A stretch of DNA of 64,000 bases from Yuukianura sp. NJ FZ-2021 (lineage: Eukaryota): contig CM102285.1 of assembly GCA_046563655.1 (NCBI GenBank), positions 3,534,001-3,598,000 of the forward strand. The letters are read 5' to 3'. Below the pieces are notes generated by a model that saw only the letters and a program-made list of their open reading frames with translations, did no database searches and had not been told where the DNA came from. Positions 3,254 to 53,878 of the stretch are shown here, piece after piece. The first letter of the stretch is position 1; every line of letters begins with the position of its first letter. A program made the translations under genes and the position numbers.

Positions 3254-4449
3254 TTATTCATTACTAGGCTCCGAAGTTTCAATGGCATATGCGATTCCCA
3301 GTTTTATATACTCATGCAACTGCGTAAAATTGACAGTGTCCAGTGTATCTTGTCGTGTGTGCCAGTAAGGACTGTTGTTTGGTTCCTTAGCATAGGCCAC
3401 ACGGTAATTTTCATAATAGAAGGAAGCATGATCTGAACAGCCATAACCACAAGTTCGGTCCTTCCATCCCCACTGCGTGTAGGTTTCAACGAGTGTGCGC
3501 AGGAATTGAGTCAGATCGACATCGATGTAATCCGTATTCAGCCCGATTCGTTCTTCCGTATAATATCCGTCTACATCAAAGTTCAGCATTGAAAAAACGT
3601 CCACTCCTGCTTCGGCGTAGCTTGACGCAATTTCTCCAGAACCACGAAGACCAACTTCCTCTGCAGCATACCACTGGAACTCAATTGTTCTTTTCGGAAT
3701 GAAATTTGCATGGAGAATGGATCGGAGTACTTCCAGAACAATTGTGGATCCACTTCCATCGTCATCTGCTCCAGGAGCTTCGCCATTGGCTCCGGATGTT
3801 GCTGAATCTAAATGGCTCCCGAGAATAACACGCTGCTGTGTTAAAGCCGGATCCGCCCCTTCAATGCGCACAATCACACTCGGTTGAATGTACGACGCAT
3901 GCTCAAATGTGTTGACGGTGACTGTTCCAGAATATCCACTTTCCACCACTGATGCCTCGGCTTGTGATTTGATAAACAGGGCTGCGTCGAGACCTGATTG
4001 GCTAGTGTAGTAACGGTTGAAAAATGACGTCAAACTGGTCAAAAATGTTTCGGCATGTGTCAAATCAATCTGAGCGATGACATCCTGTACTTGTGCTGTA
4101 AATCTCGGTGTCTGCGGGATTTCTATTTGATTTCAAAAACAAGAAATTAAAAAAAAAACATAAGTAAGAAAAAATAATTTGAATCTTAATTACCGCCAGA
4201 ATTTGGAGCTTTTTTATGGGAGTGTGACGATTCTTTTTGATCTGTAATGTCGATAAATCCAATTCCAAGACTGTTTAGCTTCAAAATTTGAGATTCGGTA
4301 AGCCATTGCCCAAGATCTTGTTCACTTGTTTTAATTAACCTTTTTTCAGTAGTTTGAACTGCTTCATGCACCCTGTCATCTTCTAGCGGTTTTGAAGTTG
4401 CCAGTACTAACAAGACAGCAAACACTCCAAAACGGATAAATCCGTTCAT
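3254..4449 (-). CDS. Secreted M28-family leucyl aminopeptidase, fungal LAP1 / Vibrio aminopeptidase type (2 exons: 4449-4194, 4122-3254; ~374 aa)
   Basis: Signal peptide MNGFIRFGVFAVLLVLATS, propeptide with FIDITD, and Zn-ligand motifs VILGSHLDS, APGADDDGSG, YAAEEVGLRGS, MLNFD, CGYGCSDHASF and PYWHTRQDT. A 71-nt GT-AG intron (4193-4123) joins the two ORFs in phase. Confidence 0.92.
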
Positions 4450-5256: not shown

Positions 5257-8200
5257 ATGGCGTCGTTGAGAGTAAAGTTAATGTTATATGTCGTTTTGTA
5301 TATTAGAACGGCTATTTGTATTCAGAATATAGATTTTACCACGGCTGAAAATATGGAGTACATAAACTTGGATTTGTATTTGAAAGGTAGTTGGGCCGGT
5401 TGCTACAATCATTTGATATTGTACTCAAAATATACGAATATTTACAGTTCTCAAGTCATTACTTTGGCTCCACCAAAAACCCCGCGGCAGTTCAAATACA
5501 CCAATTCATGCGTATTTGCCTCCGACAACATGAAAATTATTCAAGGCGTTGTCCGCGTGTCGTATGCCGTGAAACATGGATTTTGCCCAGATAATCAGAA
5601 GTATTACATGGTACGAAATGTAGAGTGCATTGGAGTAATAGCGTTGTTTCCAGATAAGTTAAAAGAGGAAGAAGATATTTTTTGGTATTTGGATCAATTC
5701 TGGTTTCATCCACGCTTGCGCATACTCAATTCAGTAAATGGGGAACCCTATATTGAGAAAAGCGCAATGCAGTATTCGTACCATCTGACTAACCTCCGCT
5801 TGCAAGTAGTCACGGATGCATGTACCTTCAAAGATTCTCACAATATTGTTAAAACTACGTTGGAAATTCGCAATATGTGGAGCACCTACAGTCGCCACGT
5901 TACACGACTTTTAGTTCGAGTTGTACATGATCAGTGTGCGGGAAATATAAAATCAGACGGAAAAATAGATATAATGATTGGATCTCCATTATTACAACTT
6001 TTTGAGCTCTCTGTTATAAAAAATGCGGCTCTCCCTCTTCTTATTGATTTCAAACCTATACTTGGAAAACTTTATAAGACAATGCCAATGATAACCATGT
6101 ACACCTCAATAGACTTAGAGAAACCCGAAGACACATTGATTTTGCCTCCGTTTCGCGATTTCATGTACAGTGCATTCAATAGAAGTAGAAACGGAATATA
6201 TCCAGGTAAGAAATCCTAAAATATGTATATGATGCGCCGATTAAATAATCCTAATCCAAACTTACGTTAATTTTTAGGCTATGTTAACGCTTACTACAAC
6301 GGATATCAGGCTACAACCTATCACTTGCACTATCAATGGGTTCTTCCCATTACGTCACTCAATGCTTTTGGAGTGACGTGTCATGGCAAGGGCCAAGATT
6401 TGGGTTTAGTAGACTACGCTCGTCCATTCGGACCGAGGATGTGGCTTGGACTGGGTGTTCTAATGCTATTTATTTGCTCATTTTTTGCCATTTCTCCTGC
6501 ATATCGCGTTGAATGTTTACGTACCTCTGCTTATATTTATGCCAACATTTTAGATGTGGCATTTGAATTACCCAAGATTCCCGGAATTCCTGGGATTGGG
6601 CTTCGAGCATTTAGTGTCACTTTCCTTTTTATGACTCTTGTACTTACCAATGGCTACAAAGGGATTGTCACCACTTCACTTGTTATGCCATTTCCAGCAG
6701 AAGAGTTGAATTCCCTGGAAGAGGCTATTGACCAAAATTACACCAGAATAGTTGACTGGAACAAAACTTGGATGTACCAACAATGTTGTGCAAACCCAAA
6801 TGGAACTAAAACGTTTTACTTCTTTGAAGAATTTTGGAAAGTAGAGGACGGCCAAACCTGTCAGGATACAATACTAGGTCGGGTTATATCAAGCTTGAAG
6901 TCAGTTTTATCAAATACGAGGTTTTATTGCAAAGAAAAAATGAAAAGGAAAAGCTTTTAAAATGTTTCTTATTCAATTACAGTCATAACCAACGTAAAGT
7001 TGTATTTAAGTTGTATAATTTTGATTGTATTTTCCGTGTAGACATTCAAATTTAAAAAATTTACAAGAAGAATTCTTTTTTAATGTTTTCAATTTCTAAT
7101 AGTTGTTAAGTAACAGACAGACAGACAACGTCAAATCATCAAGTAGCTTTGGCGGTTTGATCATCTCTGTCTGCCTGTGTCGCCACCCGTCCGTCCGCCA
7201 GCGGCGATTATTACGGAAACGTCTCAATGCTGACGGGATCTACTTTCACCGTTGAACACAGGATGTTCAATGTTGAATATCATCTTTGTGAGTCAACCCC
7301 TTTCGTTACACAAAATGACCTCTACAAGAGTTGCTCATCTCATCGAGACGAACAACTTTTGTGTATATCAGTTGACCCTAACCCTACGTGACCTCCTTCC
7401 GATCAACTTTTGCCTTTTACCATTTATTTTTATAGTCTACTATGACTCGTCATAAAGGACGTTATGAGTAAGGATGTTCACGTTCCATGTCTTGTAACGA
7501 AACTTTTGCCCGATTCCGCTTCTTTTCCGTTTCCTAATATTTTGGAAACGGAAAATTTAAACCCCTGACTTTTGGTAAATTTAAGCATTTTTCTTCAGTA
7601 ATCGGTGGGAAAATGAAGGAAAATTGTCAATACCACTTGTTTATTGTATATTTAGGTGGTTGTATATGGCTAAACTACAAATAGAAAGTGAATTCCAATA
7701 ATTCACATTGTTTTTTCCATCATTTTTTCCTAATCTTTATGGTGTCTAATCTACATCCCGTTTCCCGTTCCGTTTGCGTTTCCGAAGTTTTTGGAGACGC
7801 AAAATCCGTTTTGTTTCCGTTTCCAAGCGGAAACGAAACGAAACGGAACATGAACATCACTAGTTATGGGCAGCCGTTTGCGGCTGGACCACAATCTTTC
7901 GCTACTTTAGTACCCTCCGGGTTGCAACCGGTTTTTATTTTTCAGGTTCTTTTCTTGAAGGCTTTAGTTTCGTTAAAGTGCAACCTGTGAATTCGAAACA
8001 AGCGCTGATTGGTTGTGTACAACATGAGCTTTCCCGTATTATATTAAAAGCTTCAAGTCACCTGCAAAACTTCACAGCAATCACCACGGCTTTGGTTTTT
8101 CTTTGTTCAAGTTCCTTCCGCAACGAACATTATGTTAATAATCTTGCAAAAATATCATACTGCCACTGTTTATGAAATGTTCCAATTGCTTCAACTTGAT

Positions 8201-38200: not shown

Positions 38201-40806
38201 TTTGAATTTTGTTACAAAAATTAACGCGTAGGAAAATTTCACAGAATAAAAAGTTGTTTTTTTGAAAATTTGAAACAATACGGCAGCGCATAACTTATCT
38301 TTACGTTTTTCAGCAAAGGCAAAAGGTATTCGCTTTCGCGAACCCAAATATCAAAATATCCACCAACAAACTTTTTTCTCAGTAGTTGTATGTACAAGTT
38401 AATCTTAGCTTTGTGTATTAAGTTAGGTTTTGTTTGTTTTAACTGTTCCTGGCACCAAGTTATGTTTTGTCAACGTGACCCAATCTAGGGAAAGGCCTTG
38501 CTACTACAGTGCTATGACTACTTTGTGATTTTGATTGGATTTGGTGACTGGAGAGCAGGTAATGTTGACGGAGGGTGATCTCTGTGTCTGTTCGTGTTTT
38601 CGGTGCTTTCTCCTTGCAGTTGAATAAATAAAGTGCACTCAGCTCTGACTGGCTCCTCCGAGGGATATGGGATGTGAATTGTCAAGAAAATCCTTGGATC
38701 TCCACCATTACATTTTCAAGAAAAACGGAAAAATTGCCTCCAAGGCTCTTGTCGGAAGACAGGAAAAGTGTCGCTGTAGGAAAGGTGGAAGTTCTACACG
38801 TTTTGAGTTCCATGCAAAAGTAGGACTGGAAGTATAGGAGAAAGCATAAGCAGTAGGGGAGGAATAGAAATTGAATCCAACGGAACAACTGACATGAGGA
38901 ATAAGAAAATGTTATGTAAATTGTGTATGGCAGAATGGAGAGAGCACGGAGAGTAATGGGAAATCGGAGAGACTCCATGCTCGTTACCATGGTTTCTGCC
39001 AGGAAGTCTTTGATGTGAACTCCTATACTTTTCTTTTGGCGTTTCGACACAAAATGTTTCCAGAAAAATGGTCAGAGATCAATACGAGTTATGGTAAAAA
39101 AAAACGGCAGACATGGCGTCTCACTTTTTAGTAAGTCCTTCCATTTTAGAGGATTCCTAAAAAATGCAATCTTCAAAAAAAAGGAAAACAATTTTTTTTT
39201 TTGCATTAATACGGTTTTGGAAAAAAAGGCTTCAAAATTTGTAAAAATTTGAGGGCTGAAACCTATGTAAAGCAAAATTGAAAAAAAAAATGTTGAGAAA
39301 AAAAAACTCAAATCTAATCTAACTCAAGGGAATACTAAGTAGTCTAAATTTTGAATGAACATGTGTAAGCTTTAATTGAAAGTTGTTAGCGGTTGTAAGA
39401 AAATTGGGGAGGTTTCTTGATAAGCGATTTTTTCAAAAGAAAGGAATTGGAAAGAAAGCTTTCAATTACTCGGAATTGGAATCAGTCTGACTTTGATTTT
39501 GTAAATAATAAAAGCCGTACGAGAAAGTATCCAATTTTCGAAAAGTAATAACTTTTTTCTTTCCAAAAAGAAATGGGTCGGCATAACTTTTCTTTTCATT
39601 TTTTCATATTTTGAAGCAAGTCTTGTTACAAGGTCTATCCTTTCTTCTTATACTTTTGTATGGACTTGATTAAAGTGTAGACAAGACTTAAGAGCTGGAA
39701 AAACGATATTGCTCCCCATTTCTTGTCACTTTTATTGCTTCCTTTTGTTGTGTCTTGAAGAAACGATATTTTCTGGGAAAAAGAAAACATATAGAGAAAC
39801 TGTGGAGAAGGAGATGGAGTAAACTTCTAGCAGTTGGAGCCTTCACAAGTAACCAAGAAAGCCCTTGGCACCAATTATGAAATTGGTTGAAGCTCCACGT
39901 GCAATTTGAGGTCAACGGATACTTCAGAGGTCATAGGTCACCTTACATCAATCTAAAACAAATGAACAAACACAAAGTTAAATTTAGCAGAAATATTTTA
40001 ACACTTGATTGATAAACTAACAATGCTAAAGAAAACAAATTTTTGCAACTGAAAGCTCATCGGAACGAACTTTTATTCTTTGAGCTCAATTTCTTTTTAA
40101 ATCCTTTAGTTGTCTAATCCAAATTTTCTTCGTAACCACGTAATTGTTTGCGTGTTAGAAATTTTCTTTCAATGAAGAGTTCACTCTTTTATTCAAAGTG
40201 CAATGCAAAAGGTATAATTTGGCTTTTTTAACAGATGAAACTTTTTTGGGTTGTTTTGGTGTTAAATCGAAAGTGAGTATGGCTCTCCAAGTCGCTATTA
40301 TCTCAAGAGACTTGAGGAATTTCTCCGCTTTCTCCCACTAATAAGGTTCTCGTGACTCACTTGTAAAGCGCAGGCAGAAGAACATAATCAACGTATCCTT
40401 ACAGCCTCATCTCACTTTTAGCACTTTTCACCCCACTTTGAGCAGATTTTGACAAATCAAGAATGACCTAAACTCAGAAATTTTGACATTTGACCTGTTG
40501 CTGAATCACTTAATCAAAAGATTCGAAAATTGTGTAACTTTTTCTACTTAAAAAAAAACAAAACACTCAATTTCACAGTTTGGATGACTTGTACTCCGAT
40601 TCCTGTCATGGAACCAAATGAGTGAAAGTGAGGATGAAGTTTGAGCTGCGCGGCGGGAAATTCAAATCGCTGCCATGATTTGTGTCTCTGGATTAACGGA
40701 AAGCCGAATACTAATCAAGGGGTGCCGAGATGTATTCCCATGTGACAAAAATTGACAAAAGCGGTTCTCATCTGCATGGAATCAAAGTTCTTTCAAGGTC
40801 TGATGA

Positions 40807-41887
40807 AATAAACCGGTTGTAAACCGCCCATACTGATAATAGCGAAGCAATAGGCCCCCCGAAGGGGGTTTGTTCCCCCCACTTTCCCGCCTCCCCCCCC
40901 CGGGGGGAGTGGGGGTGTGTTTTCTCCAGTTTCCCGCCCCCCCGGAGTAGTGGGGGTGTGTTCCCCCCACTTTCCCGCCCCCCCAGGGTGAGTGTGGGTG
41001 TGTCCAGGGTGAGTGTGGGTGTGTTCCCCCCACTTTCCCGCCCCCCCCCAGGGTGAGTGTGGGTGTGTTCCCCCCACCTTCCCCCCCCCAGGGGGTGTTG
41101 ACATGTGAGACGTGACAGCTGAGGCGTGACAGGTGACAGGTGAGACGTGACAGGTGACACCCGGCAAGTGACACGTGAGGGTGACAGGTGACACGCGGCA
41201 AGTGACACGTGAGTGTGACAGGTGACACGCGGCAAGTGACACGTGAGTGTGACAGGTGACACGCGGCACGTGACAGGTGACACCCGGGAAGTGACAGGTG
41301 ACACCCGGTATGTGACAGGTGACACCCGGCAATTAACAGGTGACACCCGGCAATTAACAGGTGACAGGTGACACCCGGCAAGTGACAGGTGACACCCGGT
41401 GCGGTGGACACAGTGCATGAGTGTGTAAAGTGTATATGTCAACTGCGTAATAGATTTTTTGCTAAGCAGAGAACCAAGTCCCATGCCAATTGCCTTTCCA
41501 GTCTCACAAGCAGAGTTTTTGTTACACACACTTGCATTACAAATGACCTTTGAAATCGATTTTGACCCGGAAGGAGGTGACCTAGGGTCACACATTACAC
41601 ACAAAAGTTGTTCCCCTCGATGAGATGAACAACTTTTGTAGAGGTCATTTTCCATGTTACCTGGGATGAAACCGGTTGACCTTGACCTTTGACCCGGAAG
41701 GAATTGACACCCGGGGGTCATATTCAATAGTGACCAAGCCCGGGTCATGACATGGTCACTGGTGAAAACCGGAATCAAATCGGACCAGTAGTTTCTGAGA
41801 TAATTAATCTGGACAGACAGACAGACAGACAGACGGACAGACAGACAGACAGACAAACCACTTTTATCATAATAGCTTCGCTATTAT
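40807..41887 (-). mobile_element. HINE/DINE-1-like element, copy A of a head-to-tail dimer
   Basis: Read on the minus strand: 5' hairpin ATAATAGC-GAA-GCTATTAT, (GTCT)n, conserved core, central GTGACA-based minisatellite, G-rich block, 3' sub-TIR GCTTCGCTATTAT and stem-loop CGGTTTACAACCG. Confidence 0.85.
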
Positions 41888-42973
41888 AATAAACCGGTTG
41901 TAAACCGCCCATACTGATAATAGCGAAGCAATAGGCCCCCCGAAGGGGGTTTGTTCCCCCCACTTTCCTGCCTCCCCCCCCGGGGGAAGTGGGGGGTGTG
42001 TTTTCCTCACTTTACCGCCCCCCCCAGGGGAGTAGGGGTGTGTTTTCCCGCTTTTTGCTCCGCACCCCAGGAAGCGTAGGGGTGTGTTCCCCACTTTCCA
42101 GCCCCCCAGGGGTAGTGGGGGTGTGTTCCCCCACTTTCCCGCCCCCCCAGGGGGTTTTGACAGGTGAGACGTGACAGCTGAGGCGTGACAGGTGACACCC
42201 GGCAAGTGACACTTGAGGGTGACAGGTGACACGCGGCACGTGGCAGGTGACACCCGGCAAGTGACAAGTGACAGGTGACACCCGGCACGTGACAGGTGAG
42301 AGGTGACACCCGGAAAGTGACAGGTGACAGCTGACACCCGGCAAGTGACAAGTGACACCCGGAAAGTGACAGGTGAGAGGTGACACCCGGCAAGTGACAG
42401 GTGACAGCTGACACCCGGCAAGTGACAGGTGACACCCGGAAAGTCACAGGTGAGAGGTGACACCCGGAAAGTGACAGGTGACAGCTGACACCCGGCAAGT
42501 GACAGCCGTGACAGCCGTGACAGGTGACACCCGGCGCGTGACAGGTGAAGTGACAGATGAAGTGTGACAGGTGACAGTTGAGTGTGTTAGTCAACTGCGT
42601 AATGGATTTTGCTAAGCAGAAAACCAACTACCATGCCAATTGCCTTTCCAGTCTCACAAGCAGAGTCTTTGTTACATACACTTGCATTACAAATGACCTT
42701 TAAAATCCATTTTGACCCGGAAACAGGTGACCTAGCGTCACACATTCCACACAAAAGTTGTTAGTCTCAATGAGATGAACAACTTTTGTAGAGGTCATTT
42801 TCCATGTTACCGGGGATGAAACCGGTTGACCTTGACCTTTGACCCGGAAGGAGTTGACACCCGGGGTCATATTCAATAGTGACCAAGCCCGGGTCATGAC
42901 ATGGTCACTGGTGAAAACCGGAATCAAATCGGGCCAGTAGTTTCTGAGATAATTAATCTGGACAGACAGACAG

Positions 42974-43004
<31 letters not shown>

Positions 43005-43039
43005 AACCACTTTTATCATAATAGCTTCGCTATTATAAT
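41888..43039 (-). mobile_element. HINE/DINE-1-like element, copy B of a head-to-tail dimer
   Basis: Same architecture as copy A. Its 3' hairpin end abuts the 5' end of copy A at ...GCTTCGCTATTATAATAAACCGGTTG... (41875-41900). The central minisatellite differs in length and order. Confidence 0.85.
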
Positions 43040-44765
43040 AATGGATCCAGAACACCCGGACGTAGGGGCATAAGGTTTGCATATTAAGTTAGGTTATACG
43101 TTAGGCTGTTAGGTTATGCAATATGTTATTCTGACTATACAAAGTATTAGGTTAGGTTATGCATACTAACGCAACCTAGTTTCGGAGATTGGGAGGATGA
43201 CTTCCCTGCATATAATTATAACGTGTAGGCTAAGCAGCCCTTGGCTACCATAACACTTTCGAGTTTCCTCATTATATTAACTGGCGCGAAGTTTTGAATC
43301 TCCCGCCATTTATCGTAGGTTTCCGCTTCAAACATTTGCATCAGAGGAAGTGACTACTTTTTTTTCGAATTTTTTTTAAAATTTCATATGCAAGAGACGA
43401 TCTCAGAAGGAAATAGATTCTAACAAAGGAATTTGAGAAGTAACTGGCATTTAGGCTTGGGTGAAGCTTACTTCACAACCAAAAGACGCTTGATAGATGA
43501 GTTACTACCGTTAAAGCCCATGGAAGCTAATTTATCACTTCTCTGAGCCCTTAAGGGCCTCGCCCAAAGGTTAGGCTAGACCAACCTAACATATTTTCTC
43601 TGCATAGTTAAATAAGCACATTCACCTCTCAGTTCCCACAGATTCCGAAGCGTCCCTTGAAGGGACAATTGAATATGCGTTTTTTATGCTCATTTACTGT
43701 TAGATATGTCCAAGGCCCTTGGACCCAACCCTTTCCTTGGAATTGCTTTTCTTGCATGATGAGCAACGGGATTTTGTCTATTCTCAGGTTCCGTTTGAAG
43801 GGTCATGGGTTAACATTAGGCTAGGTTCAGGCCAACGTAAAAAACGGAGGACAATTGTGTCTCGAAGGCTATTCAAATGAAGGGGCCCTTATTTGAATAT
43901 CCCTCGAAATTTCTTCATCTCAAATGAGGATCTCTCTCATCTTATTCCAACCTTCCAATTGAACAGAGAACAGTTTTTTATAAAGTTCCTTTTGAACAAA
44001 AAAAGCGAAGGGTTGAATTTGATCTGGCGGAATCTTCGGAGACTTCGTTTGTTGTCCAAGGGACGGGGGCCCTTGGGATTGTGGTGCCTCCAAGGGACAG
44101 GTTTTGGTGGTGGCGGATAAAAAGTATTACGGTATGATTCAAAACTCATAAGCAGCAACGCATAAAACTTCGCTATAAACCAGAAAAACTTCGTTTTGGA
44201 TTGTGAAAATCTTGAAACTTTTCTGAAATTTTGCTCTTTTTAAACGGTATATCTTTATGCTACAAATGTTCGAATTCAAAAAAAATCTACACAAAAAATA
44301 GTTTTTTCTCTGGAGCTGTACATAGGTAAAATTTTGAAATTTATATTTAACTTTGATTTCAACGTTTTTGTAAATTTAGTGCCAACTAATGGATTGAACG
44401 AGTGAAAGCGTGGAATGTTGAAATCGCATCTCTCGTTTTCATTACCAAGGTTAACTTGTTAACGTCGTCAGCAACGGTTTGGGTAGGTTAATAACTTGAC
44501 CAAAAGTTAGCATAATGTGCTCAAAATACAAAACTACTTTAGTCAAGGTCGTGTTAACTTTTTTTAAAAAGGCTTAACCACATAAGGTTTTTTTAAACTT
44601 GCGCGCCCTACTGTAGCGTCTCTAATGTTTGTAAAAGTGATGTTCAGTTATGCAAGTATCAAACTGATCTGACTGAAAATATCCCACGCTCTTGGTTTGC
44701 ATGATTTCGTATCTGGTTAAAGGAAAACAGATAGAGAGGACCCTGAATAAGGGCTACCTTGTCCC

Positions 44766-44928
44766 AGTAGGAGGGTAGAGGGGACTTTCACGCCAAATCA
44801 ACCTTTGGACCCATAAGGTTTTAAAGCAACTGGCGTGAGATCCCAAAAGTCGGATTAATTAAGACATTCTTCAAGACTAATTAACACTTCCGTTCAAGAC
44901 TAATTAAGACTAATTAAATACTTCCTGT
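44766..44928 (+). repeat. Left terminal inverted repeat (163 bp)
   Basis: The first 100 bp are identical to the reverse complement of the right end. The remainder is identical except for one extra TAATTAAGAC unit on the right. Confidence 0.95.
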
Positions 44929-45238
44929 TGACTTTAATTAACACTCCTGTTATTTAATTAGTACCTTTGTCCGCTGACCATGGAGGAGGAGGAGGAAGAA
45001 AAAATGTGGGATTCAACGCTAAACAAATTCTTTGGGGGTCGGCTTTTGCTTAGGGGGTCGGCTCTGGCAGAATCCTAACTTCCTGTAACAATTAACACTT
45101 CCTGTTATTTAATTAATACCTTTGTCCGTTAACAATATCTGGCGGGTGGGAGGAGGAGGAGGAACACGAAAAAAGGCTATACCCTGACCCACAAATTCTT
45201 TGGGGGTCGGCTTAGGGGGTCGGCAGGTGTCGAGAGGG

Positions 45239-45273
45239 TATATAATACCACACATTTACGGAGACTTTCAGTC
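45239..45273 (+). promoter_or_regulatory. Pol II core promoter of pPolB (TATA + initiator)
   Basis: TATATAA at 45239 and arthropod-type Inr TCAGTC with its A at 45270 (31 nt spacing), upstream of ATG 45389. Confidence 0.6.
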
Positions 45274-45388
45274 TCTGCGCAACTACTGTTCAGTTCTATT
45301 GTCCTAAGATTGTCGCTACCTTTTACGGAGACTTTCAGTCTTTACACAACTCAGTTCTATTGTCCTAAGAATCTTATTGTCCTAAACA

Positions 45389-48300
45389 ATGTCAAAGCGC
45401 CAAGGAACACCAATTGTTGGACCATCAAGTAAACAATTTAATTGCATACTGTGCGCTCAAGGGTTTGCTTCTCGAGCAATATTAAAACTACATTTCGACC
45501 ATGTCCATAAAAACTGTCTTGAACCAGCACCACCAGGTTACGATGTCACGAACGAGAGTATTCTACAGGAATTTCGCCATTTGTTTTGCTATACATGTGG
45601 TATACCATTTGATTGTCGGAATAAGCTTCAAGAGCATTTCTACACCACTCATCCAGACTTTAGCATTCAAGATGGCGGAGGAATATCAACCGATCCTATA
45701 TCCGTGACTTTAGTGCTGGAATCTCTAAAAATGAGTCGCAAGTACATGGCCGACTTTGATACATTTCCATGTGGTGAAGGTGTCGACGAGAGAGACTTTT
45801 TTACGAATGTTAAACTATCATCCTATGAAGTCATCCGAGAAGACATCTCCAGATGGAAGAACTTAAGGATATTTTTTACCTTGGGGTGTCACTTCACCAA
45901 AACGCACGGAGATGGAACGGTAGAATCAAAGGATGTTGGATTCACCTCATTTCGACACCTTGTCTTCAATGCAAACATGCTACCTAAAGTTTGGTCAGTC
46001 ATGTGCAGCCAAATGTCGGACCAGATTGAAGACTTTACCAATGAGGGCAGCGGCTGGACTCTGGATTCCATTCGGAAATTTGGATTTGTCACTTCAAAAT
46101 ATCAATTCACCAAGATTGGTACATACATGGACACCCCGTACCCACTATCAACTCAAAAAGTTCTGCTTAACATCAACAACAGCAAAGTCTCAATGGACAA
46201 TTCCCACAACAAATGCTTCCTCTGGTCAGTGCTCGCCCATGACAAAATCGGTGGCATACCAGTCGGGAAAAACAACCATAGGTGCCGCATTGACAAGCTT
46301 GTGAAAACATACCAGCCAAATGAATACAAGTTGAACACTAAAGGACTCCATTTTCCGATGACTTTGGATCAGATCCCTCACTTTGAAGAACTCAACCCAA
46401 ACATTTCTATAACCATTCTTGGTTATGACATGGATGGACCACAGCCACCGAAGTTGAGCAAAATTGAATCATTCAATTTTATACAAAGCAAGATCTCAAT
46501 ACTGTACAATTCCCAACATCCGAAGGAAATACACATCGACTTGATGTGTCTTATGCAAGAAAACAACGCACACTTCATTCTGATTCGAAATCTTGAAGCC
46601 TTAATGAGAGCGCCAAATGATCACAAAGTCAAGCATATTTGTCGCAACTGTCTCTCCAATTTTCAATCAGCTCACTCTCTACAACAGCACATCAAGTATT
46701 GCGCAGCGTTGGATCTTCAAAAAGTTGTATATCCTGCAGACAAAAAATTGACTTTCAACAAGTGGGCCAGAACTCAGCCTGTACCATTTCGATTCTATGC
46801 AGACTTTGAAGCTTTCCTCCCAAAGTTTAATCCCTCAACTATAGAAGAGGAGGAACGCCGACAATTCAAAGAAGAGATACGTGGAAGACCAGTTCAACCT
46901 GTGAATAAATGTTGCACTCACCTACACAAGCCATGTGGATATGCTTGGGTTTGTGTCGACTTCAACGGAAAGCGAAGACATGGCGAATATTATCATATCA
47001 CCAGCGATGACGAAGACGTTGCTGCCAAATTCATTCAGAGCATTACTGAGTACTCCAAAACACTGGAAGAGGAAGTTCGGTACTATGAAAAAATTGCGCC
47101 AGATATGCTTAATCTGACTCCAGCGCAAAGAAGTGCTGCTGCCCTTGAAAAAAATTGTTGTTTTTGCAAGACGCCATTGGACGGAACGAAAGTACGACAC
47201 CACTCACATCTTCCACCGTTCAACTATATCGGGATGGCTCACCAAGACTGTAACCTCCAAGCACAAATCAAAAAGGAGTTTCCCGTCTTCATGCACAACT
47301 TCTCATCATATGATGTTCACTTCATTGTACAATCCGCTGGAAAGCTAAAGCAGGACGGAATCATCAAGGACATCACTGTTATCCCTAAGAGCAGTGAAAA
47401 ATACATGTCGCTGAGCATCGTTCCTGCGTACCACGATGATTTCGATGAGGACGATGGACCTTGGAGAAAAAAGCCCTTCAAGCTGAGGTTTACAGACAGT
47501 CTTGGATTTACACTGAAATCTTTGGACAAACTTGTGAAAGTGATGCGAGCTGATCCCAATGCTAAATTTCCAATTACAAGACAAGAGTTTGCACAACACG
47601 ATGACATTGAACTTCTCTTCAACAAAGGAGCTTATCCTTATTCTCTCATGAAGTCTTGTAAGGATTTCAAAATCAAACAACTACCTGCCAAAGAAGATTT
47701 CTATAATGACTTGACGGAATCACACATTGATAATGCCACTTATCAACACGCTCAGCAAGTCTGGAAAAGCTTCAACATTCAAGACATGGGAGATTGGCAT
47801 GACTTGTACGTCAGGCTAGATGTATCGCTTCTGGCTGATGTGATGGAAGGAATCCGAAAAATAATGTTTGATGCTTACGAATTGGACCTGGCCCATTATT
47901 TCTCGTTACCTATGATGGCAATGGACTGCGTTCTCAAGAAATCAGGAGTGGAATTGGAGCTAATCACGGATCCAACCATGCATTGCTGGCTGGAGCATGC
48001 TATTAGAGGTAAAACCTAGAAGACAAATGTTAGACATTTTCTAATTCATTTTATTTATAGGTGGATATGTTAGCGTTGGATCAATGCGAGAGGCTAGAGC
48101 GAACAATAAGTACATGGGAGATGAATACGATCCAGAAAAGGAGTCCAGTTACCTCATCTACATCGATGCCAACAACTTATATGTAAGTGTTCAACAACGT
48201 CTTTGAAAAATTATTATCTAAAGTTTAATGATTCACTAGGGCAAAAGCATGAGTCTTCCGCTTCCAACTGGTCAATTCCGCTGGCTAACAGAAGAAGAAC

Positions 48301-49632
48301 TGAAGAACATTCAAGAAAATAATTTTATCGTGAACAACGAAAAGGGGTACATGTTTGAAGTGGATTTGGAAATTGATCCTTCATTGCATGACAAGCTGAA
48401 CGATTTTCCTCCGGCTCCAGTTAGCCGTACAGTTGAACAAAAGGAGTTATCCACCCACCAGTTACAATTGACGGAGAAACTCAACACTTGTCCTGGAATT
48501 TTCAAGGTTAAGAAACTTGTGGCTGATCTGAATAATAAGAAGAACTACATTCTACATCACGCCATTTTGATGGAGTACCTGAAACTTGGAGTTAAAGTTA
48601 CAAAACTTCACTGCGGAATTTCCTTCACTCAGAGGCCATGGATGAAGGACTTTATCGACTTTAACACTGAAATGAGAAAAAGGGCTACATCAGACTTTGA
48701 AAAGGATTATTGGAAACTTCTCAACAATTCTGCATTTGGTAAAACAATCGAACAAGTTCGTAAACGTCAAAACGTTCGTATCGTTACATCCATGGAAGAA
48801 GCTCTACGTTACAACAAGAAACCCACCGTCCAGAATGTCATCCCAATTAACGAGTCAACATGCATCTTTATGATGAAGAGACTTCAAGTCACTTTAAACA
48901 AGCCAATATATACGGGCGTCACAGTGCTTGAGCTAGCAAAGAGCATCATGTACCGACATCACTACACGATACAAGCGAAATACGGCGTCGACAAGTGTCG
49001 CCTTATTTATACTGACACAGGTAAATGTTGAATTATCCAACAATTTAACTATAAACTAAAGCTAACTTTTTATTTCAGATTCCTTCATCTATCACATCCA
49101 AACCGATGACGTTTATCAAGACATGCTCCATGACAAGGACTTGTATGACATGAGTGAATATGAATCCGATCACCCCATTTTTGGAGAGTTTCACGATCCC
49201 ACAAACAAGAAAGTTTTGGGAAAATTCAAAGATGAAGCTGCCGGTTCTGTAGTCACTCACGTCGTTTGCCCTCGTCCAAAAATGTACACCATTAGATCCT
49301 TGAAACTTCAAGTCTACCGAGGCTTTGATGGGAAAAATATTTACCAAAAGAAGACTGACGGCAGCTGGTTCATCAAAGACGAATACACGAAGAAAGTCAA
49401 AGGAATAACTAAAACTGCTGTCAACAACCAAATAGCGTATGAAGATTTCGAGAAAGTCCTTAAAGAAGATGTTCAAACTCGTGTATGGATGAGAGGATTT
49501 AGAAGTGTAGAGCATAGAATTTTCACAGAAGTAACGTTAAAAAGGGCTCTTAACGGTTTAGATACGAAACGATATGGTGTTGATAGAATTAACACATTAG
49601 CATTTGGACATAAGGATGTGATTAAACAATAG
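45389..49632 (+). CDS. Protein-primed family B DNA polymerase, Polinton type (4 exons: 45389-48008, 48061-48182, 48240-49020, 49079-49632; ~1358 aa)
   Basis: ExoI YADFE, ExoII HNFSSYD, ExoIII YVRLD and motif B KLLNNSAFGK. Splicing restores IRG|G, DANNLY|GKSM (motif A) and YTDT|DS (motif C). Also two N-terminal C2H2 fingers and an EndoVII/HNH-like insert CCFC...VRHHSH...AHQDCN. AATAAA at 49681. Confidence 0.93.
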
Positions 49633-49689
49633 TTTATTATAAGTCGTGTCTATTGAATTAGTAATCGTAAAACTGAAAACAATAAATGT

Positions 49690-50115
49690 TTATAAAATCA
49701 TTTTGTCAAGCATTTTCAACAATCCTGCTTTGGTTATATTGATTACATTTCTTTTTCCGGCTTTTACAACAGCTATTAAAAAATCTAATTGACTTGAATC
49801 CAACTGGTCGGATGATTCCTCTTCATCGTCATCTGAATCAGAATCAGAATCGTCTGCTCCTTCCACAAGCTTCCGTAAACTGTCCAAAGTTAGCCGTTGA
49901 ACTCCAATATCCGCATTGTGTAGCGCATGAAGAATTAGCGATAAGCTGGATTTGCTCATGCCAGAATGTGCCTTAGAGTCATCTTCTTCTTCAGTTTCCG
50001 TTTCAGAGTATGCCTCAGAATCCATAGCTTCGTCTGAATGCGCAGTGCGAATATGTCGATGTAATGCGTCAGCGCGGGAAAATGACTTGGAACAAATGTC
50101 ACAGTAAACAGGCAT
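49690..50115 (-). CDS. Small single-C2H2 zinc-finger protein with acidic tracts and two helical repeats (~141 aa)
   Basis: MPVYCDICSKSFSRADALHRHIRTAH. TATAAAA (50164) and Inr TCAGTT (A at 50132) lie just upstream on the minus strand, and minus-strand AATAAA is at 49638-49633. The longer called ORF runs through the microsatellite and is not credible. Confidence 0.8.
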   Translation of the reverse strand: MPVYCDICSKSFSRADALHRHIRTAHSDEAMDSEAYSETETEEEDDSKAHSGMSKSSLSLILHALHNADIGVQRLTLDSLRKLVEGADDSDSDSDDDEEESSDQLDSSQLDFLIAVVKAGKRNVINITKAGLLKMLDKMIL

Positions 50116-50128
50116 GATGTACAAATGC

Positions 50129-50380
50129 AACTGAACAAATTTTTTCGGTTGCAACAGTTTTATAGTGGTGGTGGTGGTGGTGCCTCCTCCTCCTCCACCT
50201 CCTCCACCACCTCCTCCTCCTCCTCCTCCTCCTCCTCCTCCTCCTCCTCTCCTCCTCCTCCTCCTCCTCCTCCTCCTCCTCCTCCTCTCCTCCTCCTCCT
50301 CCTCCTCCTCCTCCTCCACGCAGGCTTATCAGGTGGTCGTGGTGTATATAAAGCGTTGGTGTGATGATGGAGGCACTTCT
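50129..50380. promoter_or_regulatory. Bidirectional promoter with back-to-back TATA boxes enclosing a (GTG)6 + ~(CCT)45 microsatellite
   Basis: Minus-strand TATAAAA 50164-50158 with Inr at 50132. Plus-strand TATATAAAG at 50345 with Inr-like GCACTT at ~50375. (GTG)6 at 50165-50182 and an interrupted CCT tract at 50183-50317. Confidence 0.7.
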
Positions 50381-50416
50381 GTCCCTCATCATTTGTGTTT
50401 CAGCATTCACAACAGC

Positions 50417-51151
50417 ATGGATTGTAGTGTTTGCAACAGTACGTTCACACGTTCGGATAACCTTAAACGCCATGTATATACTGCACATGGACATCAAACC
50501 GATGATACTACAGCGGATCGTGATACCACAGCGGATGAGTGTTTTGATTATAGGTTAAAGGCACCATTCTGCATGACAATTAGCGGAGCAAGCCAAAGTG
50601 GGAAGTCGTCGCTTCTTAAGCAATTACTCCTTCAACGTTTTGAAATGATTGATATTCCGATTAATGATATCCTTTATTGTTATGGAGAGCCAGAGAATGA
50701 ATTTTTTAAGGATCTGAAAAGTCACATCCCAACAATTGAATTTCACTATGGATTACCTGACGATTTTGCGAGTCCCTGCAACACTCATCGAATAGTCGTA
50801 CTTGACGATCTAATGCATGAAGTTTGTGCTAATAAGGATATCGCCTCAGCATTTACTCGAACGAGCCACCACAGAAATGTGAGCATAATTTTCGTCACTC
50901 AAAACTTCTTCGAGAAAGGACAACGTACGATAACAACAAATTGCCAGTATATTTGTTTCACGAAAAATCCTCGAGAAGTCTCTCAAGTTCTCTGCTTCGG
51001 ACGTCAGCTAACAAAAAACGGAAAACGTAACGAAGCTCTGGAAACGTGCTATGAAGACGTTATGAAAAAACCGTATGGTCATGTATTTATAGACCTGCAC
51101 CAATCCCAGGATGATAGGTTTAGAATCACAGAATCCTACAGAAATAATTGA
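50417..51151 (+). CDS. FtsK/HerA-superfamily (A32-like) packaging-type ATPase with N-terminal C2H2 finger (~244 aa)
   Basis: Finger CSVCNSTFTRSDNLKRHVYTAH, Walker A GASQSGKS, Walker B IVVLDDLM, motif TRTSHHRNVSIIFVTQN and C-terminal KPYGHVFIDL, as in Polinton ATPases. AATAAA at 51172. Confidence 0.88.
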   Translation: MDCSVCNSTFTRSDNLKRHVYTAHGHQTDDTTADRDTTADECFDYRLKAPFCMTISGASQSGKSSLLKQLLLQRFEMIDIPINDILYCYGEPENEFFKDLKSHIPTIEFHYGLPDDFASPCNTHRIVVLDDLMHEVCANKDIASAFTRTSHHRNVSIIFVTQNFFEKGQRTITTNCQYICFTKNPREVSQVLCFGRQLTKNGKRNEALETCYEDVMKKPYGHVFIDLHQSQDDRFRITESYRNN

Positions 51152-51183
51152 TAATTTTATTTGACTTTGTGAATAAAGACCGT

Positions 51184-51900
51184 TTAGCAATCTCTTTTAC
51201 CATGAAAAGTAATTTTCCAAATTATGTCACTGGAATAATGCTCTAGTCGAATACTCTCAAGTACAGCAAGTTCTCTCTTACCATAGAAACTATCTATTCC
51301 CCATTTCCATCTGTTAATTTCCATTTGCTGGTGCTTAGTAACGTCCAGTACATGTTGACTGTAGTTTGATGTATTAGTTGTTGTGCAGCAACAGTTGAAC
51401 TCGCCAAAAATACTCCTACAAGGATCGATTTCCAATTTGTTGTGACAGGATCGGAACGCCTCATTGCGAAGTTTCTCGATGTAGCCGCGTTTAGTTTCAT
51501 GAATCAGCATATCCAAAGATTCCTCCAAGTATGTGATAGGAAAACATCCACATTTTAGAAGTGACTCAACCAGCAGAGGAATATGGTCCAAATCGATCAT
51601 AACAGGCGCGCCGCTTCGGATAAGGATGACACGAGATGATGCGTCCTTGATAAAATGAATCGGCAGTAGTGGTTCATCCGGCGAGTACTCATTTTGCTTT
51701 GCTGCATTGTTACGGTTCTGTAGTAACAGCTTCTCAAAATGTGGAAGATGCTTAATCATTCTTCCTTCTTCAATATATGCTTTGACTAGCTCCTCTACAA
51801 CCGTTGGTAGTTCTTCGGATGAGAACATAATTGAACTTCCAGAAATCCCGACGCCAATGAGTCCCATGCTTAGAAACACTTCCGGTAGGGTAGATTCCAT
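51184..51900 (-). CDS. Hypothetical protein, paralog A (~238 aa)
   Basis: Intact ORF inside the element, colinear with 52186..52881 (LPHFEK, YLxESLDxxIHExKR, NCCC, HxLDxTKHQQ, IxFHG). Minus-strand AATAAA at 51161-51156. Confidence 0.8.
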   Translation of the reverse strand: MESTLPEVFLSMGLIGVGISGSSIMFSSEELPTVVEELVKAYIEEGRMIKHLPHFEKLLLQNRNNAAKQNEYSPDEPLLPIHFIKDASSRVILIRSGAPVMIDLDHIPLLVESLLKCGCFPITYLEESLDMLIHETKRGYIEKLRNEAFRSCHNKLEIDPCRSIFGEFNCCCTTTNTSNYSQHVLDVTKHQQMEINRWKWGIDSFYGKRELAVLESIRLEHYSSDIIWKITFHGKRDC

Positions 51901-52185
51901 TCTTGGCAATAGTAAATTTTAGTACAATAGTAAATGGATGGTGATGGTTAAACTGTATAGGTAGCACTGCGTTCCCCCCTGAATGTGGGTGGCATTAAAT
52001 TCCCCCTAATCACATGTTCAAAGTAAGTTCCAAAAACGTTTTTTGTACAAGAGCCAATCAGATTCATAGTCCTGGGGGCGAGGGAGTTAGCTCCTCCTAA
52101 CAAAGCAAAAAGAAAATGAATTAGTCCCAATTAGTTCAGTCTTAACTGGTCGTAAGAAGGAAACGCGAGTTTAAATTAGCTCAAC

Positions 52186-52881
52186 ATGGAAGTACTTTCG
52201 TCCACATCCGGTATTGAAGTCAGAAATTCATCTTTTTCCATTACTTTTACTTTGGAGGAACTGACGACGGTAGTTGAGAAGTTAGTTGTTCTATACATTG
52301 GAGCGGGGAAAATGATGGCTGACCTACCGCATTTTGAAAAAATTCTGGCTCAAAATCGTAAGAAAGCGAGCCAAGTAGAATCAGTCCGGGAAATCAGGGA
52401 AGCGAGTATTCATTGCATACGAGAAGATGATCAAGTATTCCTAATTCGAGCGTCTGGCGCTGCTGCTGTTAAGCTGGATCAAGTTCCACGTTTGGTTGGA
52501 AGACTCCTAAAATCATTTCCAACTTCGTATTTAGACGAATCGTTGGATAGAGTTATCCATGAAGCAAAACGAAGCTACTTGAAGGATCTACGCGAATTGG
52601 CTTTGAGTAGGTGTCGAAATAAAGAAATTCCAAGTAATGGAAGTGTTTTCGATCGTCCTAATTGCTGCTGTCCACAAACAAATCAACACATTCGGAAACA
52701 ATATACGTCACATTTGCTGGATTTGACAAAACACCAACAATTTCAGATCCGTCGAAGAACCTTTGTTATGGAGAGTTCTACACGTAGCATGTATTCTACG
52801 CTCGAGGAACTTCGAATGAAGCCGTACAGTGCTGATGTAATTGGCAGCATCATATTTCATGGTGTTCTAACCACTCCATAG
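52186..52881 (+). CDS. Hypothetical protein, paralog B (231 aa)
   Basis: Intact ORF divergently oriented to paralog A and homologous to it over nearly its full length. Confidence 0.8.
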   Translation: MEVLSSTSGIEVRNSSFSITFTLEELTTVVEKLVVLYIGAGKMMADLPHFEKILAQNRKKASQVESVREIREASIHCIREDDQVFLIRASGAAAVKLDQVPRLVGRLLKSFPTSYLDESLDRVIHEAKRSYLKDLRELALSRCRNKEIPSNGSVFDRPNCCCPQTNQHIRKQYTSHLLDLTKHQQFQIRRRTFVMESSTRSMYSTLEELRMKPYSADVIGSIIFHGVLTTP

Positions 52882-53705
52882 CTTGTAATTTTAATGTAAC
52901 TAGGATTTACAGATGTTAAAAATTTGAAGAAAAATGATTGTCCTTTCTAGTTTCGTTTAAAAGTTGAAAAACAAGCTGGCAAAGTAATTAAAGAACCTGG
53001 CCAAATGTGTTTAATTAATGTTCACACGTAGCGTTAAGAGAATTGTTCTAGGAAGCATTAATGGATTTACAAAAAATTTGAAAATAAAGGATTACAAGTC
53101 CTTTCTTGTTTCGTTTAAGAGTTGTGAACAATGTTCAAGCTTCATTGCTGCTTAACCTATAACACCTACATAACGGTCAGTTGTTGTAGACCGGAAATGA
53201 TTAAGACCGGAAACCACCAATTACCGGTGCATGTGTCCGATTTTGCAAAAGGACTATAGACTAAGTTGGTTAGTTTACACATGAACTAAAAGGCATCCTA
53301 ACTACTCATGGTTTAAAGTATGAATTTCATAATTTTCAGTGACGCATGCATTTTTTGTTTCAAATTTGGTGGGAAAGTTGTTCCTATTGGCTCGTGGTTA
53401 GGTTTCTCCACACATTTAAAATTGGATTTTGATGGGTGTTTTCATGTCATCCATTTTAACAAATTGGAGGGAGCCAGAGAGCGGAATTGGAGATTAGGCC
53501 GGATGTAGAATCATTATGGATGCAGAAAAGTAACTGACCATTTAGACATCCACGCCACCTTTTAAACCGTCTTGCTAATGCGACTAATTAATGAGAACAG
53601 ATGGCGTTTAACTGTCGCGGGATGTATTTAATTGGACACAGGAAGCGTTAATTGGTTTTAATTAGTCTTGAACGGAAGTGCTAATTAGTGCGTTCAGGAA
53701 TAGTC

Positions 53706-53878
53706 ACAGGAAGTATTTAATTAGTCTTAATTAGTCTTGAACGGAAGTGTTAATTAGTCTTGAAGAATGTCTTAATTAGTCTTAATTAATCCGACTTTTG
53801 GGATCTCACGCCAGTTGCTTTAAAACCTTATGGGTCCAAAGGTTGATTTGGCGTGAAAGTCCCCTCTACCCTCCTACT
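53706..53878 (-). repeat. Right terminal inverted repeat (173 bp)
   Basis: Reverse complement of 44766-44928 plus a 10-bp slippage duplication; followed directly by GTCCC. Confidence 0.95.

Follow-up and report, generated by a model that had tools for sequence, protein, structure and literature searches.

Three probable spliceosomal introns in conserved motif codons of the polymerase gene of a Polinton-derived element from Yuukianura sp.

The stretch of DNA analysed here, referred to as the window, comprises 64,000 nucleotides (nt) of the Yuukianura sp. NJ FZ-2021 genome (NCBI GenBank assembly GCA_046563655.1, contig CM102285.1, positions 3,534,001 to 3,598,000 of the forward strand), and all coordinates are counted from its first letter. 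Within it lies an element bounded by terminal inverted repeats (TIRs) that carries a gene for a protein-primed family B DNA polymerase (pPolB). The gene extends from 45389 to 49632 on the plus strand and consists of four exons; upon removal of three GT-AG segments, these join into a single pPolB frame of 1358 codons. The element and the parts of the gene are listed below, with a slash marking the point of interruption.

44766-53878: the element, 9.1 kb, TIR-bounded, with ends that begin AG
45389..48008, plus strand: pPolB exon 1, 2620 nt (873 codons plus 1 nt), uninterrupted
48009-48060, plus strand: intron 1, 52 nt, phase 1, GTAAAA...TTATAG, splitting the Gly codon G/GT of IRG-G-GY
48061..48182, plus strand: pPolB exon 2, 122 nt, from the GGYVSVG stretch through motif A (YIDANNLY)
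48183-48239, plus strand: intron 2, 57 nt, phase 0, GTAAGT...CACTAG, between the Tyr and Gly codons of DANNLY/G
48240..49020, plus strand: pPolB exon 3, 781 nt, with motif B (KLLNNSAFGKT) and the start of motif C (YTDT)
49021-49078, plus strand: intron 3, 58 nt, phase 1, GTAAAT...TTTCAG, splitting the catalytic Asp codon G/AT of YTDT-D-S
49079..49632, plus strand: pPolB exon 4, the remainder of the Asp codon and SFIYH... through the stop

The three introns have a G+C content of 0.22-0.26, compared to 0.375 for the window, and each contains an in-frame stop codon as well as branch-like sequence. Intron 1 has CTAAT 16 nt before its 3' end, and its open frame closes at 48019 with a TAG (48017-48019). 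Intron 2 has CTAAA 18 nt from its 3' end and an in-frame TGA after 7 codons. Intron 3 carries two such sites, CTAAA at 19 nt and CTAAC at 13 nt before its 3' end, and its frame is closed by a TGA at 49029-49031. The open reading across the four exons amounts to 4077 nt. If intron 1 were retained, the product would end in ...IRGKT, three codons past exon 1 and between the exonuclease and polymerase halves, giving a protein of 876 amino acids (aa). A sequence-only reading of this DNA had already proposed the three introns. On re-reading the sequence, all of its figures for their coordinates, lengths and in-frame stops were found to be correct, and it had placed them precisely at the codons of IRGG, motif A and motif C, including the split catalytic Asp. 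The uninterrupted 2.6 kb that it saw ahead of intron 1 corresponds to the open 2620 nt of exon 1, and its arithmetic for the 876-aa retention product holds.

Exon 1 encodes C2H2 fingers at the N terminus, then a conserved N-terminal region, the motifs of the exonuclease and an insert resembling Endonuclease VII/HNH. The insert lies in the exonuclease half (~47150-47270, residues ~590-630) and is rich in Cys and His; its Cys, His and Asn columns are invariant, and the Pfam family Endonuclease_7 (PF02945) is matched by 10 of 17 aligned homologues. Upstream of the polymerase ATG, TATATAAT is found at 45239-45246 and TCAGTC at 45268-45273, ~30 nt further downstream, which we take to be a TATA box and an arthropod-type initiator, respectively. 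Downstream, AATAAA is present at 49681-49686, 49 nt past the polymerase stop. The 5' leader itself (45257-45368) contains a duplicated unit of ~54 nt that includes TACGGAGACTTTCAGTCT.

The translations of the four exons were kept separate and compared by blastp with 120 homologues found using the exon 1 protein. At junction 2, the matches of the two exons abut at the very next residue in all 111 homologues concerned (111/111). At junction 3, a single residue, the split Asp, is skipped in 101 of 102. Junction 1 shows an offset of +1 in 106 and of +2 in 10 of 116 homologues, the +1 cases being those with one residue fewer after RGG. In these alignments the exon ends are collinear with uninterrupted homologues, far beyond what chance would give. 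The sites themselves fall at highly conserved positions, with local conservation percentiles of 94.5, 99.3 and 96.9 over the 1351-1352 positions of a 94-row alignment. The chance that all three sites would be so conserved is 3e-4 when drawn from the whole protein and 9e-4 from the polymerase half, both values being post hoc as the hypothesis came from the same data. In a 17-sequence alignment, the flanking residues G956 and G957, D991, N994, L995 and Y996, and D1266, T1267, D1268 and S1269 (numbering of the homologue P0004) are invariant.

The signals within the segments lead to the same reading. A CTRAH motif is located 13-25 nt from the 3' end in 7/7 introns seen as DNA, namely the three of the window, two in the related locus L005 and one each in the loci L016 and L002 (see below). 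In mononucleotide shuffles, this motif arises by chance at 0.16-0.30 per intron, for a product of 1.5e-5. The seven introns are 52-69 nt long. Among neighbouring host genes, one for an M28 peptidase on the minus strand has an intron of 71 nt (4123-4193) and a receptor-like one has an intron of 72 nt (6206-6277), both GT-AG and AT-rich. The introns of the relatives begin with GTTTGT, GTAAGT, GTAAGT and GTAAGG, and all end in YAG. With respect to U2-type introns, the segments combine GT...AG ends and the extended consensus with a branch-like site and a T-rich tract, their removal restores the frame, and position and phase are conserved: to the nucleotide at sites 1 and 3, and in neighbouring positions only near site 2. 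By every test open to sequence, these introns are real. We consider it likely that all three segments are true spliceosomal introns of the U2 type, that they belong to the short AT-rich kind of the host, and that they reside in the polymerase gene of a Polinton-derived element and are constitutively spliced.

Contigs assembled from DNA sequencing runs were also inspected; these derive from three runs of one sample and one run under another organism label (X1-X4). Among 15 of the 24 joints listed, none is at an intron border, although contigs of this kind are unable to show absence.

Relatives of the polymerase were collected in a metagenome scan with the homologue P0002, which yielded 17 loci, several of them near-duplicates. 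Locus L005, whose protein shares 58% identity with that of the window across 609 columns, is interrupted by a GT-AG intron of 62 nt and by a second intron of 64 nt. The first falls in the Gly codon that intron 1 splits and the second in the Asp codon that intron 3 splits, each in the matching phase, and motif A is uninterrupted in this locus. Locus L016 has a 63-nt intron at the position and phase of intron 3. In locus L002, motif A is broken within its Leu codon by an intron of 69 nt, placed 4 nt before site 2 of the window, and sites 1 and 3 are without introns. Across the metagenome loci, interruption was seen in 1 of the 10 covering site 1, 1 of the 11 covering site 2 and 2 of the 16 covering site 3. 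A scan of viral contigs with exon 3 alone gave no match; with the alignment as query it gave four distant loci, three of which are uninterrupted at all three sites, the fourth being L021. The mapping of intron positions in related elements, which the sequence-only reading had put forward as a check, thus went partly its way: sites 1 and 3 are shared with L005 and site 3 with L016, but close relatives often lack the introns.

Further positions can be read from the tails of database proteins that appear to run into unspliced introns. At site 3, P0002, P0389 and P0294 continue from TDT into G-K..., whereas P0293 and P0320 end directly after TDT-G. This read-through pattern is found in 4 of the 248 covering proteins (of 267 homologues), which is a lower bound because proteins from eukaryotic annotations are already spliced. 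At motif A, P0001 departs after DANNL, and its tail, which begins C-K-C, fits T/GTAAGT at -2 nt, as inferred from the protein. The P0003 family (P0003, P0393, P0395 and P0396) and P0014 depart after LYG, with tails G-E-L and G-M-Y that fit G/GTGAGT and G/GTATGT, respectively, for a position of +1 nt that likewise comes from protein. The motif-A introns of the different lineages would thus occupy four positions within 6 nt (L002 at -4, P0001 at -2, the window at 0, and the P0003 family with P0014 at +1), of which those of L002 and the window are seen as DNA. At site 1, P0242 and P0389 start within the 3' end of an intron. A further candidate signal, that 14 of 45 N-terminally truncated proteins start at an invariant Met four residues past site 2, was rejected as intron evidence because it is confounded by the behaviour of gene callers.

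Other proteins are free of interruption. P0241, the nearest relative, reads straight through all three sites, and P0001, P0002 and P0390 also have no intron 1, their IRGG being uninterrupted. P0390 shares a 90% cluster with P0002 and yet reads DTDS straight through at site 3, where P0002 runs into an intron-like tail after TDT; P0390 may represent either an intron-less copy or a spliced transcript. Judged from these relatives, the presence or absence of an intron turns over quickly between close relatives.

A tree of 35 rows (quick search, LG+G4) unites the window polymerase with P0001, P0002, L005 and L016, with a value of 91 in the SH-like approximate likelihood ratio test (SH-aLRT). This group is nested in a wider clade of 10 rows (97), to which P0003/P0004 and L002/L010/L013 also belong. 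A tree based on exon 3 only places the window with P0241 and P0244 (95), and P0293, P0294 and P0320 in the other major clade. Since site 3 is interrupted in 4/4 covering members of the window's group, its intron is probably ancestral there. The site 3 pattern in the other clade, the patchy distribution of site 1 and the four motif-A positions would fit either frequent loss or exchange of introns or their repeated gain.

Repeated independent gain at hot spots, through site-preferring insertion or through selection for interrupted catalytic codons, was accordingly considered as an explanation of these positions. The clustering of four motif-A positions within 6 nt speaks for it, as do the TDT-then-G read-through in P0293, P0294 and P0320 and the presence of site 1 in the window and in the L005 family but not in P0241, P0001 and P0002, which lie between them on the tree. 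However, most of the positions are read from protein tails rather than DNA, and the pattern is explained equally well if old introns were often lost or if there was exchange between copies. In addition, no 16-mer of the three introns recurs elsewhere in the 64-kb window, and their pairwise identity of 0.50-0.70 is that of an AT-rich background, so that within this window there is no sign of a repeated source of the introner type. We thus regard hot-spot gain as improbable. A broader proposal is that animal Polinton polymerases have a few recurrent intron sites, at the hinge between exonuclease and polymerase, at motif A and at the Asp of motif C, which distant lineages would have come to occupy independently by targeted gain or by selection for a 'splice-gated' polymerase. 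The four motif-A positions would speak for it, as would the Asp-codon phase that is common to the two major clades; we consider it rather unlikely.

The same comparisons bear on whether splicing of the gene is regulated. Retention of intron 1, or of any of the three, could block the polymerase in some tissues or yield the 876-aa protein, which would keep the zinc fingers, the N-terminal region and the exonuclease but have no polymerase domain, as a repressor or primer. The stop that follows retention of intron 1 is indeed placed exactly at the exonuclease/polymerase boundary, at the IRGG stretch, which we take to be the YxGG/A motif of B-family polymerases. The 5' site of intron 1 is the poorest of the three in the window (GTAAAA), the same being true of its counterpart in L005 (GTTTGT), and all three introns leave an unspliced RNA non-functional for polymerase. 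In the Drosophila P element, retention of the third intron gives a repressor, and the resemblance is that of a DNA transposon enzyme gene with short introns, one of which, if retained, leads to an in-frame stop and a truncated protein. The present gene differs in that it encodes a polymerase, not a transposase, and in that its nearest relatives lack the intron concerned. As P0241, P0001, P0002 and P0390 are without intron 1, the lineage does not keep this intron as a conserved device; nor is there conservation of the read-through peptide, with 3 codons in the window and 22 in L005. Moreover, a stop ~1.6 kb before the normal one, with two introns downstream, is expected to lead to nonsense-mediated decay and not to a stable truncated protein. 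A conserved splicing switch similar to that of the P element is possible, with the comparative evidence weighing against it, and regulated retention as such appears unlikely.

Constitutive splicing is the preferred reading, and under it the gene would work as follows. The polymerase gene would be transcribed in the nucleus as an ordinary Pol II gene, with its putative TATA box and initiator, its three introns and its AATAAA. Active polymerase would come only from mRNA with all three introns removed, because a stop within each intron would otherwise end the frame and because introns 1 and 3 interrupt invariant codons. Splicing would be plain and constitutive, with the usual export and expression benefits of a nuclear gene. 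The placement in motifs may be a by-product, in that protein-constrained codons supply and preserve the exon-side splice context: GAG/GT at Arg-Gly, present in the window as well as in L005, and CAG/AT at Thr-Asp, present in the window.

Several points weigh against this account. The by-product idea is weak at site 2 (TAT/GG) and fails at site 3 in L005 and L016, where the exon side reads CCG/AT. The weak 5' site of intron 1 in the window and L005 would fit partial retention. More than chance plus constraint is suggested by the four motif-A positions taken with site 3, which is found again in the other major clade (P0293, P0294, P0320). Splicing as such is predicted from sequence, and in the protein databases the best identities are 49-56%, with no protein from this organism. 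Constitutive splicing, and the by-product reason for the location of the introns, are what we infer to be most likely.

The remaining features of the element, including its open reading frames (ORFs), are the following.

44766..44928, plus strand: left TIR, which begins AGTAGGAGGG and is preceded by TGTCCC at 44760-44765
53706..53878, minus strand: right TIR, followed by GTCCC; TGTCCC is shared by both sides if the repeat's last T is counted
49690..50115, minus strand: small C2H2 gene, 141 aa, single exon, with an N-terminal zinc finger and an acidic tail (PF00096, E 1.2e-06)
50417..51151, plus strand: A32-like packaging ATPase gene, single exon, with an N-terminal C2H2 finger (PF04665, 26 bits, cut-off 22.8)
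51184..51918, minus strand: orphan ORF A, ~236 aa, a 45% identical paralogue of ORF B
52180..52881, plus strand: orphan ORF B, 231 aa, divergently oriented from ORF A

The TIRs are ~163 nt long with one 10-nt offset and contain inverted repeats of 101 nt (100%) and 76 nt (99%). They are flanked by a target duplication of 5 or 6 bp, the last T being ambiguous. Hundreds of pieces of the contigs from runs X1-X4 cover the element, at 85-100% identity. In addition, X1, X3 and X4 each contain a contig in which 44759 is connected to 53878, the two sides sharing 6 letters (TGTCCC). As read from the contigs, this joint is a site without the element, either this one or a paralogous one, with the caveat that the letters standing between its sides are not known. 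The element is multicopy and mobile. In the polymerase leader, contigs from X2 and X3 skip 45304-45356, leaving a single leader unit in those copies.

Differences among copies bear on the condition of the gene. Of the ~1114 differences, the 40 best-supported are listed, and 34 of these fall inside exons; because 18 of the 34 are synonymous and 16 are not, there appears to be coding constraint among the copies. A cluster of insertions and deletions in the coding sequence nets +3 nt, while those in intron 2 total 5 nt (deletions of 1, 2 and 2 nt in one diverged copy, run X3). The segments might still be taken for junk insertions in a dead, decaying copy, which are never removed; most Polinton copies in animal genomes are degraded, according to passages of PMC8097293, and the present copy has no integrase and capsid genes. 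Against decay, all four exons are open over their full length, the splice signals are canonical and restore the frame exactly, the differences among copies are enriched for synonymous changes, and two of the intron positions are shared with relatives that are only 45-58% identical. A dead gene is thus very improbable indeed, and the comparison indicates that the introns are inherited features of the polymerase lineage, not damage.

The family membership of the element is indicated by its polymerase, whose best named matches are the PolB of an Orchesella springtail adintovirus and proteins of Folsomia candida. Among the aligned homologues, PF03175 is matched by 5/17, and the invariant columns of the Exo and Pol motifs are present. 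The separate exons match no polymerase family in Pfam or PHROGs, and the full-length intronless proteins P0004, P0005 and P0002 also miss PF03175. By sequence, a profile of the 17 homologues finds no solved polymerase and has a zinc-finger match only. The ATPase is 50% identical to ATPase ORFs that adjoin polB in L001, L010, L013 and L017. As for an rve integrase, no ORF of the element has a Pfam match, and tblastn of the L017, L010, L011 and L007 integrases against the window gave E values of 0.31 or above; the sister lineage L017 has one (PF00665, E 3.2e-10). No capsid or protease family was found in the ORFs of the element or in the window, and of the morphogenetic module only the A32-like ATPase is present.

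Because integrase, capsid and protease are absent while sister lineages have an rve integrase and the same ATPase, the element is identified from its gene content as a reduced Polinton/Maverick (adintovirus-like) derivative. It is presumably moved by enzymes supplied in trans. The label of Polinton given in the sequence-only reading is therefore borne by PolB homology, the TIRs and the target duplication, but not by a gene for integrase, capsid or protease.

A similar C2H2 finger opens the polymerase (45440-45510), the small ORF (50040-50115, minus strand) and the ATPase (50417-50490). The polymerase P0004 also starts with a C2H2 finger, and the ATPases of L001, L010 and L013 are without one. 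Between the small C2H2 gene and the ATPase gene lies a (CCT)n/(GGA)n microsatellite (50150-50330), at which reads are cut. ORFs A and B have no homologue in a collection of 5.8 billion proteins, no Pfam or PHROG family and no Atlas match. The AlphaFold 2 (AF2) model of ORF B, with a mean predicted local distance difference test score (pLDDT) of 63, shows a beta3-alpha unit twice, followed by long helices. Foldseek gave no match to it at E<=0.001, the best value being E 0.26, with weak matches to PUR-repeat proteins at E 0.29 and above, too faint to be interpreted.

Elsewhere in the window, an Rfam scan gave no match. The host gene for the M28 leucyl-aminopeptidase-like protein occupies 3257-4132 on the minus strand, and its best named matches are from Orchesella and Folsomia (44-48% identity); springtail proteins and proteins of zoopagomycete/chytrid fungi are its best named relatives at similar identity (42-48%). 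The Orchesella and Folsomia matches of this gene and of the polymerase would fit a springtail-like arthropod as the probable host. Just to the left of the element, 40768-43029 is a GC-richer (0.47) block of tandem repeats, whose minus strand has long open frames made up of repeats. A shared segment (...NYLRNYW...IPVFT...) at 2009-2395, ~40768-41000 and 42700-43029 looks like another repeat family.

The elements most closely comparable to this one have been described as free of introns. Passages of PMC8097293 report that intact vertebrate Mavericks have none, 'in agreement with Kapitonov and Jurka (2006)', and score interruptions in Mavericks as decay, while passages of PMC10120064 give the statement that endogenous viruses 'do not contain introns' as the assumption behind gene calling. 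The background on which the sequence-only reading drew, that Polinton genes are described as intronless, is thus in keeping with these sources, as far as the passages go. The present element resembles Polinton/Maverick elements and adintoviruses in its homologous PolB, the adjoining A32-like ATPase, long TIRs starting AG and a 5-6 bp duplication, and differs from them in its three spliceosomal introns and the lack of integrase, capsid and protease genes.

Spliceosomal introns within integrated Polinton-like elements have a parallel in dinoflagellates, whose Maverick-Polinton-like elements contain introners, described in passages of PMC11957031 / PMC12166617 as repeated, transposon-derived families that were mostly acquired post-integration. 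In contrast, the introns described here are short and host-style, share no 16-mer with the rest of the 64-kb window, and have positions in catalytic-motif codons that are conserved between divergent elements. Ginger1 transposase genes, according to passages of PMC2836005, have 1-4 canonical GT-AG introns with positions and phases conserved between families, and are similar in being DNA transposon enzyme genes with such conserved introns; they encode an integrase-like transposase of another element class, with no link to catalytic motifs reported in those passages. Our search of the full-text literature found no description of conserved spliceosomal introns in animal Polinton polymerase genes, the founding papers (Kapitonov & Jurka 2006, Pritham et al. 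2007) and supplements being outside that search, such that an earlier description is possible.

Taken together, these results indicate that a lineage of arthropod-associated polymerases carries conserved host-type introns despite the assumption that such genes are intron-free. On that assumption, endogenous viruses are routinely annotated with prokaryote-style gene callers, as passages of PMC10120064 describe. In the public protein collections, the genes appear as fragments that end or start at splice sites (P0001, P0002, P0003, P0014, P0242, P0293, P0294 and P0320). Some elements scored as broken may thus be intact, and intron positions provide a new character for tracing these elements. The introns also point to expression of the polymerase in the manner of an ordinary nuclear gene whose transcripts are spliced. 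If the polymerase were in fact 'splice-gated', its output would come only from nuclear, fully spliced mRNA and would be tunable by retention; independent gain or a regulatory design, if true, would make these elements a natural system for the study of intron gain and of how such elements are kept in check.

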